Source: Candidatus Falkowbacteria bacterium
GTDB lineage: Bacteria; Patescibacteriota; Patescibacteriia; UBA11705; JABHMO01
Reading direction: 5' to 3'
NCBI GenBank assembly: GCA_018693855.1
Contig: JABHMO010000029.1
Span: 1 to 48,480 of the forward strand
Length of the DNA stretch: 48,480 nucleotides
How positions within the stretch are numbered: position 1 is the stretch's first letter; every line of letters begins with the position of its first letter. This document shows, one piece after another, positions 484-2,723 of the stretch. The translations under genes and the position numbers were made by a program. The notes under the pieces were generated by a model that was not told where the DNA came from, ran no database searches, and was given only the letters and a program-made list of their open reading frames with translations.

Positions 484-822
484 ATGAACAAAATAAGCTG
501 GGATGATTTTGAAAAAGTTGAATTGATAGTGGGAACAATTATTGAGGTAAATGATTTTCCTGAAGCAAAAATCCCTGCCTATAAGATTAGGGTAGATTTT
601 GGATCGGAAATAGGTGTCAAAATATCAAGTGCTAGAATTACAGAACTGTATTCTAAGGAGGATTTATTGAATAGAAAAATAATTGGTGTTGTGAACTTCC
701 CGCCAAAAAGAATTGGTCCTTTTGTATCAGAGTTTCTTTGCAGTGGTTTTTATCGAGAAGACGGTTCAGTTGTTTTAGCTGTTCCTGACAAAGATGTTCC
801 GAATGGAAGCAAGTTGGGTTAA
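484..822 (+). CDS. csaA: CsaA/Trbp111-type tRNA-binding OB-fold protein
   Basis: [35 protein letters not shown] and FVSEFL motifs; 112 aa. Confidence 0.9.
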
Positions 823-873: not shown

Positions 874-1036
874 AATTCGTAACTTCCCGTGGCCGGCTGG
901 AGGGTGTTCCGTCCGAAAAAGCTGCATTGTGGGCGGTATTTCAACAACGGCTCCATCAGAATCGCAATTGCAAAACCCTGATCTCAAAGCCTCCCGCCTA
1001 TCCTATACACAAGCAATCTCCACGGATCATTGCTAC
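838..1036 (-). ncRNA. stand-alone RNA containing a 23S rRNA L1-stalk (H76-H78) module
   Basis: Minus strand of 931-1010 reads GTGTATAGGATAGGCGGGAGGCTTTGAG...TGGAGCCGTTGTTGAAATACCGCCC, matching the conserved 23S segment GTGTAGGATAGGTGGGAGGCTTTGAAG...TGGAGCCGACCTTGAAATACCACCC (recalled E. coli sequence). Closing stems GUAGC/GUUAC and UCCGUGG/CCACGGG; own promoter and terminator. Confidence 0.8.
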
Positions 1037-1082: not shown

Positions 1083-1110
1083 TTGACAAAAATCTATAAG
1101 GTTTTATAAT
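1083..1110 (+). promoter_or_regulatory. sigma70 promoter of the T-box/glyQS leader, back-to-back with the L1-stalk RNA promoter
   Basis: TTGACA(1083)-N16-TATAAT(1105). Confidence 0.75.
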
Positions 1111-1116
1111 GTATAT

Positions 1117-1262
1117 ATTACTCGTGGGGATTGGCTCCTACATGAAGAGTGATTAATTAAGGTGTCCCGCACTTGCGGGAAAACTAGATGGAACCGCGGG
1201 CCTCAATGTCTCGTTCTAGTGATCTAAATTAAATTTTTGGATTATTAGAATGAGGCTTTTTT
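1117..1262 (+). promoter_or_regulatory. glycine T-box riboswitch (transcriptional) with miniature Stem I
   Basis: T-box AACTAGA-TGGAACC-GCGGG (1182-1200) pairs with CTCGT-TCTAG as the antiterminator. The competing terminator is 1208-1256 plus T6. Stem III is TCCCGC-ACTT-GCGGGA (1165-1180). The 5' hairpin 1117-1153 has a GGC Gly codon in its loop. The element lies upstream of glycyl-tRNA synthetase. Confidence 0.85.
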
Positions 1263-1373: not shown

Positions 1374-2723
1374 ATGGAAAAAATTGTATCTCTAGCAAAA
1401 CGACGAGGTTTTGTTTATCCGGCTTGTGAAATTTATGGAGGGTTTGCGAACTCTTACACATATGGACCTTATGGTGTTGAATTGAAAAATTTAATTAAAA
1501 ATTTATGGTGGAAAATGTTTGTGAAAGATCGTGATGATATGGTTGGAATGGATGGACCGATCTTATTGCACCCGAAGTTGTGGGAAGCGTCAGGTCACAC
1601 TGAGGGTTTTAATGATGCTATGATTGACTGTAAGAAATGTAAACACAGATTTCGAGCTGATCATCTTGTTGAGGAAGCAACTGGTCAGGATCTAGAAGGT
1701 GATATTGAGGGCATGGAAAAGATTATTAAAAAAGAACTTGTTAAATGTCCGAACTGTGATGCGTTTGATTGGACAGACGTTAGAACGTTTAACATGATGT
1801 TCAAAACTCAGATGAATGGTTATGAAGAAGATGTTTATCTTCGACCTGAAACTGCTGGTGCGATTTTTACAGAATTCAAAAACATTGTCGATACAATGCG
1901 TGTTAAGATCCCTTTTGGGATCGGTCAGATAGGAAAAGCGTTTCGGAATGAAATTGTCGCAGGTAACTTTATTTTTAGATTACGTGAGTTTGAACAGATG
2001 GAGATAGAGTATTTCATTCATCCAAAAACAAAATGGGAACCTCTATTCCAAAACTGGCTTGATCTGCAAGAAGAGTTTACTTTGAGACTCGGTGCGAAAA
2101 AAGAAGATATTAGAAGATATGAACATCCAGCAGAGAAACTTTCTCATTATTCTCAAAAAACAGTTGATATTGAGTATAAATATCCATTTGGATTCCAGGA
2201 ACTTTTCGGATTAGCTCATCGTAGTGATTTTGATCTAACGGCTCACGCGAAAGCGTCTGGAGAAAAAATAGAGTATTTTGATCCTGTTGAAAAAGAAAAA
2301 TTCGTACCACACATTCTTGAACCAACCTTTGGATTAGATAGAGCGATTTTAACAGCGCTTTGCAGTGCCTATAATGAGGAGGATGTGGATGGTGAAAAAC
2401 GAATTGTGATGAAATTTCCTAATGAGATTGCTCCTGTTCAGATTGCTGTATTCCCGTTGCTAAAAAACAAGGAACAGTTAGTCGATAAAGCAAAGGAAGT
2501 TTACGCTGAATTAAGAGAGAACTATCGATGTGAGTTTGATGATAATGGTAATATAGGAAAACGGTACCGTCGACAAGATGAGATCGGAACTCCTTACTGT
2601 GTAACTGTTGATTTTGATACATTAGAAAAAGATGAATCAGTTACAGTAAGAGATCGGGATAGTATGAAACAGGAGAGAGTAAAGTTGGATGAGTTGGATA
2701 AGTATTTTGAGAGTAAACTGTAA
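1374..2723 (+). CDS. glyQS: glycine--tRNA ligase (alpha2 type)
   Basis: LAKRRGFVYP, YLRPETA, GKAFRNEI, FRLREFEQMEIEYF, EPTFGLDR and IGKRYRRQDEIGTP. Confidence 0.97.
   Translation: MEKIVSLAKRRGFVYPACEIYGGFANSYTYGPYGVELKNLIKNLWWKMFVKDRDDMVGMDGPILLHPKLWEASGHTEGFNDAMIDCKKCKHRFRADHLVEEATGQDLEGDIEGMEKIIKKELVKCPNCDAFDWTDVRTFNMMFKTQMNGYEEDVYLRPETAGAIFTEFKNIVDTMRVKIPFGIGQIGKAFRNEIVAGNFIFRLREFEQMEIEYFIHPKTKWEPLFQNWLDLQEEFTLRLGAKKEDIRRYEHPAEKLSHYSQKTVDIEYKYPFGFQELFGLAHRSDFDLTAHAKASGEKIEYFDPVEKEKFVPHILEPTFGLDRAILTALCSAYNEEDVDGEKRIVMKFPNEIAPVQIAVFPLLKNKEQLVDKAKEVYAELRENYRCEFDDNGNIGKRYRRQDEIGTPYCVTVDFDTLEKDESVTVRDRDSMKQERVKLDELDKYFESKL

Follow-up and report, generated by a model that had tools for sequence, protein, structure and literature searches.

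The window analysed here is a 48,480-nt stretch of DNA from a Candidatus Falkowbacteria bacterium, and close to its start lies glyS (1374..2723, plus strand), which codes for a dimeric-type glycine--tRNA ligase of 449 aa (NF003211, which scores 628.6 bits where the cut-off is 312). It is preceded by a sigma-70 promoter with a 12/12 consensus match (1083..1110, plus strand), made up of TTGACA (1083-1088), a 16-nt spacer and TATAAT (1105-1110), and a transcription start is predicted at around 1117, about 7 nt past the TATAAT box. Between this start and glyS is a leader that ends in an intrinsic terminator, the U-run of which stops 111 nt ahead of the start codon; a sequestrator that would hide the Shine-Dalgarno sequence is not found. 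Directly upstream of the leader region is a gene for a Trbp111/CsaA-family tRNA-binding protein (112 aa, 484..822, plus strand; NF007493, which scores 167.1 bits where the cut-off is 160), and this neighbourhood is not kept in G031 or G016, two other genomes that carry a leader of the kind described below.

Within the gap between this gene and the promoter, 86 nt of the minus strand (927-1012) match the L1-stalk region of bacterial 23S rRNA (model positions 2132-2209; 40.2 bits, E 4.8e-11 on 281 nt). This element is flanked by a promoter-like site (1071 to 1043, minus strand) and by a hairpin with a U-run (about 874 to 838), and a possible minus-strand RNA would run from about 1036 to 838, divergent from the promoter of glyS. 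BLAST searches of all fetched loci and of the genome returned only the element itself and a near-identical contig (L230), and no copy turned up in 40 relatives that were searched at the DNA level. The gene for ribosomal protein L1, rplA, is on another contig (C10), and 23S rRNA is absent from the assembly of this genome. It may be a mimic that binds L1, a fragment of rRNA that has strayed here, or an element of a new kind.

The leader begins with a hairpin of 37 nt (Stem I, 1117..1153), read from the sequence and returned by RNAfold. Its outer helix pairs AUUACUC (1117-1123) with GAGUGAU (1147-1153), its inner helix pairs GUGGGG (1124-1129) with UCCUAC (1136-1141), and the 3' strands of the two are separated by a bulge, AUGAA (1142-1146). 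The apical loop, AUUGGC (1130-1135), contains the glycine codon GGC (1133..1135), the putative specifier. A single-stranded linker of 11 nt follows (UAAUUAAGGUG, 1154..1164, read from the sequence), and the five bases at its 3' end, AGGUG, conform to RRRxG, the string of purines found 5' of Stem III in T-boxes (as the motif is defined in the available part of PMC11404447). Stem III (1165..1180, from the Rfam alignment and RNAfold) has 6 bp and a 4-nt loop and is followed by AAA, so that both of the flanks expected of a T-box leader (RF00230), 5'-RRRxG and AA-3', are present. The antiterminator (1183..1220, from the Rfam alignment and RNAalifold) comprises helix A1 (1183-1188/1215-1220), the bulge UGGAACC (1189-1195) and helix A2 (1196-1200/1210-1214), while the intrinsic terminator (1208..1262), found by a terminator search with at least 20 pairs and by RNAfold, has a 21-bp stem (1208-1228/1236-1256) and a run of six U (1257-1262). 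The terminator stem reuses the 3' strand of the antiterminator, and the two folds are mutually exclusive, as in other T-boxes. An earlier note, made from the sequence alone, had described the UGGAACC bulge, Stem III, the 21-bp terminator and, between promoter and Stem III, a single small hairpin, and its reading of these elements was borne out.

Only 48 nt lie between the predicted start and Stem III, and the 11 nt linking Stem I to Stem III leave no space for a Stem II. An AG-bulge/distal-loop platform is not found anywhere in the leader, and when the leader was read by eye no GA dinucleotide was suitably placed for a K-turn. The leader is therefore without the long Stem I (K-turn, internal specifier loop, AG bulge and distal loop) that characterizes T-boxes, and also without the Stem II with S-turn and Stem IIA/B pseudoknot of the actinobacterial ileS class; the earlier note had likewise seen neither Stem II nor an elbow clamp.

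The same architecture was obtained from RNAfold (-52.9 kcal/mol, z = -4.86), and none of 200 shuffled sequences folded as well. A comparison with Rfam model RF00230, proposed in the earlier note, gave 36.9 bits (E 9.3e-7 on 451 nt), which falls well short of 93, the gathering score. The model places Stem III and the antiterminator, including the UGGAACC bulge, at high posterior probability; the Stem I part has no credible alignment, being either empty or of low posterior probability. Whole-window Rfam scans returned nothing, either at the gathering score or at E <= 0.001, and at E <= 0.01 RF00230 detects 3 of 10 related leaders, all at 34.6-52.6 bits, meaning that annotation at the Rfam gathering threshold overlooks such minimal leaders. 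Across the 995-kb, 93%-complete genome, this leader is the only T-box match.

The genome has two tRNA-Gly genes, with anticodons GCC and UCC, and both have U73 and an encoded CCA. The variable A of the UGGA bulge matches U73 of both, in keeping with the complementarity to the discriminator base that the earlier note had pointed out, and the specifier GGC agrees with the downstream gene being glyS, as is usual for T-boxes. The loop sequence UUGGC (U1131, U1132 and GGC) is complementary to GCCAA at positions 34-38 of tRNA-Gly(GCC). Across the 37 predicted tRNAs, the longest contiguous complementarity to the loop is 5 for tRNA-Gly(GCC) and 4 for tRNA-Gly(UCC), and 3 or fewer for all others; the two conserved U residues would face A37 and A38 in both tRNA-Gly anticodon loops. 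This complementarity suggests an extended kissing contact between the loop UUGGC and GCCAA of tRNA-Gly(GCC).

When the regions within 450 nt upstream of glyS were searched for TGGNACC in 30 relatives' loci, only one was positive (L030 of genome G031, of the same class but another family), and this proved to be the same leader. Its loop and core are identical to those of the window, and its stem positions differ by compensatory changes, three of which maintain pairs 2-5 of the outer helix of Stem I (by eye). The two leaders (window 1117-1222 and L030 1270-1386) share 82% column identity, and the GlyRS proteins are 47% identical. Eight relatives with GlyRS 68-73% identical to that of the window have no T-box motif upstream. 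That the leader is far better conserved than the protein, and absent upstream of the more similar proteins, would fit a leader under strong constraint or one that has passed from one lineage to another.

A covariance model (R1) built from just two sequences, the window leader and L030, matched 14/151 genomes of the class and 10/151 of the phylum, with the genome under study counted in both. One of these leaders, L036, comes from genome G016, which had no locus among the 30 searched above and was recovered later with R1. It lies before glyS and carries the bulge UGGGACC rather than UGGAACC; the tRNA-Gly(GCC) of G016 has U73, and the fourth pair would therefore be a G-U wobble. A 15-base pattern applied to named genomes gave at least 80 loci; among the 80 matches listed, 72 had no R1 match and were taken as chance. 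Eight among the matches listed are true T-box loci, and by title they are Candidatus Falkowbacteria (three), Nealsonbacteria, Paceibacterota, Patescibacteria group (two) and one MAG labelled Gammaproteobacteria. Judged by the named relatives, the lineage of this leader family is Patescibacteria/CPR. One locus, L099 in a MAG titled Patescibacteria group, has a minimal T-box of the glycine type in front of a first ORF that is not glyS and is CYTH-like in look (by eye).

To widen the sample, metagenome contigs were scanned with a pattern that describes only the antiterminator and is independent of Stem I, which kept Stem I from influencing what was collected. At least 80 loci were found, and among the matches listed 34 lie before glyS, 35 before thrS and 11 are unclassified. 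After duplicates and thrS-type leaders were dropped, 42 leaders among the matches listed were left, mostly from one sub-lineage with the common A1 helix CUAGAUGG. In each of these 42 listed glyS-type leaders, a short hairpin displays GGC or GGA in the end loop; this figure is partly by construction, since hairpins were selected by the presence of GG[AC] in a loop. This motif-priority rule took the place of a 'most base pairs' rule, which had chosen the wrong hairpin in several leaders, and the hairpin of L236 was assigned by hand. UGGA and a terminator on the 3' strand of the antiterminator are each present in 42/42 of the leaders among the matches listed. Beyond the common sub-lineage, a glyS leader with another A1 helix (L299, a covariance model match) also has GGC in an end loop, of 7 nt.

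Promoters are placed consistently in this sample. In 40 of the 42 leaders among the matches listed, a promoter matching at least 9/12 consensus positions has a -10 box that ends 16-40 nt 5' of the codon (median 23); of the two exceptions among these matches, one has no promoter and the other has its best match 101 nt off. For the same matches, Stem III is estimated to lie a median of 50.5 nt from the transcription start (range 32-100), and the codon falls at +11 to +35. These figures bear on the idea that the real transcript begins far upstream with a canonical long Stem I, and that the promoter at 1083-1110 is fortuitous. Room for such a transcript exists in the 260-nt intergenic gap (823-1082), and the Rfam alignment stretches the base of Stem I to 1045; however, posterior probability is low in that part of the alignment, which also shows none of the conserved motifs of Stem I, and the structured element of the gap sits on the other strand. 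The promoter matches the consensus at 12/12, and a promoter just 5' of the hairpin in 40/42 leaders among the matches listed, with upstream sequences that are otherwise unrelated, argues against a far-upstream start, which is thus scarcely credible. A start close to the hairpin, as the earlier note had assumed, is adopted in what follows.

The metagenome leaders among the matches listed, together with seven derived from genomes, provided 48 distinct 32-nt segments for comparison of the loop. The triplet at the position of the specifier is GGC in 36 and GGA in 12 of these 48 listed segments, and nothing else. The claim of the earlier note that GGC in the terminal loop is the specifier is borne out by this comparison, in which a glycine codon is conserved across all 48 segments among the matches listed. 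GGC and GGA are precisely the codons that the two tRNA-Gly present would read by Watson-Crick pairing. The base that precedes the codon is U in 47/48 and the one before it is U in 44/48 of the segments among the matches listed. On the 3' side of the codon, a purine is found in 38 and U in 10 of the 48 listed segments, and the segments with U constitute the subclass of the window. This last observation is a counterpoint to reading the leader as a glycine T-box: in the subclass of the window the base after the codon is U and not the conserved purine.

Beneath the loop, the helix changes in a coordinated way. Over the 48 distinct leaders among the matches listed, the loop motif GAUUGG(C/A) is near-invariant and the stem below it covaries. 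In the class with a nine-base loop (AGAUUGGMR; 31 leaders among the matches listed), 87.1% of cells are paired and 27 are changed on both sides, and for the inner helix of the class of the window (ten leaders among the matches listed) the values are 91.4% and 18; in neither case did any of 500 shuffles score as high. Sliding the partner strand lowers every pairing measure in both loop classes. Omitted from both counts were five leaders with other loop sizes (L202, L209, L244, L036 and L091) and L199, which was removed from loop class A manually. When the estimated 5' region was folded by MFE without constraints, the codon lay cleanly in the end loop in 26 of 38 leaders among the matches listed, and by our own reading six more of these 38 differ by one lone pair within the loop.

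RNAalifold, run on 32 leaders, gave 4-16 sequences with changes on both sides at each pair of Stem III, and the columns of the UGGNACC bulge are invariant across the 32. On the mixed MAFFT alignment (A4), it recovered Stem III and the antiterminator and not Stem I, a failure we attribute to a 1-nt register shift between the loop classes. The RRRxG-type bases of the linker are near-invariant in the same alignment.

The comparison also speaks to the possibility that the leader is a decaying or constitutive attenuator, a T-box relic whose Stem I no longer reads tRNA identity and whose specificity is left only in the contact of UGGA with U73. Several canonical modules are missing, the Rfam score is low, and glyS of many relatives lacks any T-box, all of which a relic would account for. 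Yet the loop is near-invariant over the 48 distinct leaders among the matches listed while the stem beneath it covaries, the triplet varies solely between two glycine codons, and the terminator/antiterminator switch is kept in 42/42 leaders among the matches listed. A relic would not be so conserved, and we regard this explanation as very unlikely. The evidence is better accommodated by a genuine, transcription-attenuating glycine T-box riboswitch, and that is probably what the leader is: the only one in a genome of about 1 Mb, and one of a widespread family of CPR leaders whose decoding domain is reduced.

Within the glyS family, three architectures that form a reduction series can be read by eye. 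In the first, a basal helix surrounds the specifier hairpin together with a single additional hairpin; in the second, seen in many leaders including that of the window, there is only the basal helix, with a 3' bulge; and in the third, transcription would start at the hairpin itself, which is followed by a linker of 19-29 nt, often with UGAAUAU. Stem I is 21-25 nt in some relatives compared to 37 nt in the window. Stem III is enlarged and branched in nine leaders (53-76 nt by MFE in L173, L182, L193, L196, L203, L233, L244, L183 and L168) and is 16 nt in the window, and insertions in the discriminator are noted for T-boxes without a long Stem I in the excerpted text of PMC7583486.

An alternative is a working glycine T-box in which a third contact, so far unrecognised, replaces the platform or Stem II. 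Candidates in cis are the AUGAA bulge, the conserved linker (UGAAUAU...AAUYAAGGYG in relatives with a bare hairpin) and the extra hairpin inserted in Stem I of some relatives; in trans, they are a tRNA-binding protein, such as the product of the adjoining Trbp111/CsaA-like gene, or the divergent L1-stalk-like RNA. Truncated Stem I's need help, according to the accessible portion of PMC7583486, and two features of the leaders would suit such a contact: the UGAAUAU-type linker motif recurs in those without an outer helix (by eye), and in about six (L189, L191, L204, L247, L229 and L061) an inserted hairpin produces a three-way junction. At the locus itself, the tRNA-binding protein gene at 484-822 and the L1-stalk-like element at 927-1012 (minus strand) are both at hand, and the L1 stalk binds the tRNA elbow by a double-T-loop device that the T-box platform shares (available text of PMC7583486). 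Against the candidates in trans, however, the gene neighbours differ in G031 and G016, and the L1-stalk-like element occurs at no other fetched T-box locus, nor in the 40 relatives. It is a curious neighbour, but nothing links its function to the T-box, and other minimal T-boxes are without it; that it would serve as an elbow-binding module in trans, in this organism only, is highly improbable. Overall, a third contact is a rather unlikely alternative to a glycine T-box that works with the elements already described.

Leaders of other aminoacyl-tRNA synthetase genes in these lineages provide a measure of how general the reduction is. The thrS leaders, which are found at loci within L169-L246 (35 of the at least 80 metagenome loci) and at L034, L035, L040, L041, L045, L076 and L115, come from the same CPR lineages and resemble the leader of the window in antiterminator core, terminator, promoter placement and a short specifier hairpin. 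The end loop of this hairpin has 7 nt and displays the threonine codon ACC, as CUACCAA in 18/29 and CCACCAA in 5/29 distinct leaders among the matches listed. They have a conserved GAUUGC 5' flank, and they differ in the stretch that leads from the specifier hairpin to Stem III, where a conserved CUAAG motif and one or two further hairpins lie inside a basal helix (by eye) and where the glycine leader of the window has no such element. From their sequences, the thrS leaders look like transcriptional T-boxes without the elbow platform that have retained a part similar to Stem II. Two valS leaders of the same class (L037 in G099 and L046 in G031) have a canonical long Stem I with UGGUACC, including an AGAGA-type bulge and distal loop motifs (by eye). 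As a canonical valS Stem I occurs in the same class, the reduction is gene-specific and not lineage-wide; the ordinary long design is available, and the minimal one is used where codon-anticodon pairing is strongest.

From the structural elements, the codon conservation and the promoter position, which come from the sequence and its comparison, we infer a transcription start, tRNA binding, extended loop-loop pairing and a regulatory outcome, as follows. Transcription would start about 7 nt after TATAAT, near 1117, and the first 37 nt would fold into the hairpin, the end loop of which, (G)AUUGGC(U), displays the glycine codon. The anticodon loop of tRNA-Gly(GCC), UUGCCAA, would then pair loop-to-loop with it, by up to 5 Watson-Crick pairs compared to the usual 3. 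If the tRNA is uncharged, its 3' UCCA would pair with UGGA (1189-1192), stabilising the antiterminator and allowing readthrough into glyS; if it is charged or absent, the 21-bp terminator would form and transcription would stop near 1262. Since there is no double-T-loop platform, Stem II/pseudoknot or K-turn, the tRNA would be held at two points only. We tentatively propose, on an assessment that falls a little short of likely, that this is a natural 'two-point' transcriptional T-box in CPR, in which a loop kiss of 5-6 bp (UUGGCR/UGCCAA) and the discriminator may suffice for tRNA-dependent antitermination without platform, Stem II or K-turn.

T-boxes are a model system for how one structured RNA recognises another. 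If the two-point proposal is true, the hairpins described here, of 21-37 nt, would be the smallest natural T-box decoding domain and a counter-example to the rule of a long Stem I in transcriptional T-boxes, possibly also a model of an early T-box. Should it work as read, the CPR family would set the minimal requirements for the sensing of tRNA by RNA, and would offer a sensor of roughly 105 nt for engineering and structural work. It would also extend T-box regulation to the CPR, a large uncultured group with tiny genomes and little described gene regulation. The earlier note had called this a lineage where T-boxes are not well known, and in the openly searchable literature no paper linking T-boxes to Patescibacteria/CPR was found; an earlier description of such leaders may nonetheless exist.

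In canonical T-boxes, Stem I is about 100 nt and has a K-turn, the specifier sits in an internal loop, and an AG bulge together with a distal loop stacks against the elbow of the tRNA (as given in the available part of PMC11404447), which agrees with the statement of the earlier note that the Stem I of typical glyQS T-boxes is much longer than that seen here. The available text of PMC7583486 adds that transcriptional T-boxes generally require the double-T-loop platform of a long Stem I, for fast capture of tRNA. A close counterpart is found in the transcriptional glyQS/glyS T-boxes of Bacillota (Bacillus, Geobacillus and Oceanobacillus; RF00230), which also regulate glycyl-tRNA synthetase. They have in common with the leader of the window the GGC specifier for tRNA-Gly(GCC), the UGGA bulge matching U73, the series RRRxG-Stem III-AA, helices A1 and A2, a competing terminator, a similarly short A/U-rich linker and the lack of Stem II. 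By its sequence, the discriminator half of our leader (RRRxG, Stem III, A1, bulge, A2 and terminator) is that of a standard T-box, and the decoding half is not: unlike the Bacillota examples, its Stem I is 37 nt and not about 100, the codon occupies the terminal loop, and there is neither a platform nor a K-turn.

Actinobacterial translational ileS T-boxes with an intermediate or ultrashort Stem I were reportedly described by Sherwood, Grundy and Henkin in 2015, and structures of these are said to come from Mycobacterium and Nocardia. In the excerpts of PMC7583486, PMC10651847 and PMC11297988, their Stem I too is naturally truncated, the double T-loop that would bind the elbow is missing, and their specifier is near the top of a hairpin of roughly 30 nt, as it is here; no paper on terminal-loop specifiers in actinobacterial T-boxes was found in the openly searchable literature. 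The same class keeps Stem II, the IIA/B pseudoknot (called essential once Stem I is truncated, in the text available) and a K-turn, whereas the leader of the window is without all three, and it acts on translation by hiding the Shine-Dalgarno sequence (again from the available text), whereas the leader of the window closes with a terminator of transcription. When Stem II is missing, a Stem I that is truncated in nature hardly binds tRNA (accessible portions of PMC7583486, PMC7913692 and PMC11297988), and these secondary sources agree with the earlier note that Stem II is retained in the ultrashort ileS forms. In glycine T-boxes, Stem II is dispensable because of the strong GGC-GCC duplex (PMC7583486 and PMC7913692, in the parts available). 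The leader of the window thus lacks Stem II, as does Bacillota glyQS, and lacks the platform, as does actinobacterial ileS, but unlike either it lacks both, and a K-turn as well. The family to which it belongs may extend the logic of the strong GGC-GCC duplex one step further, perhaps with two extra U-A pairs.
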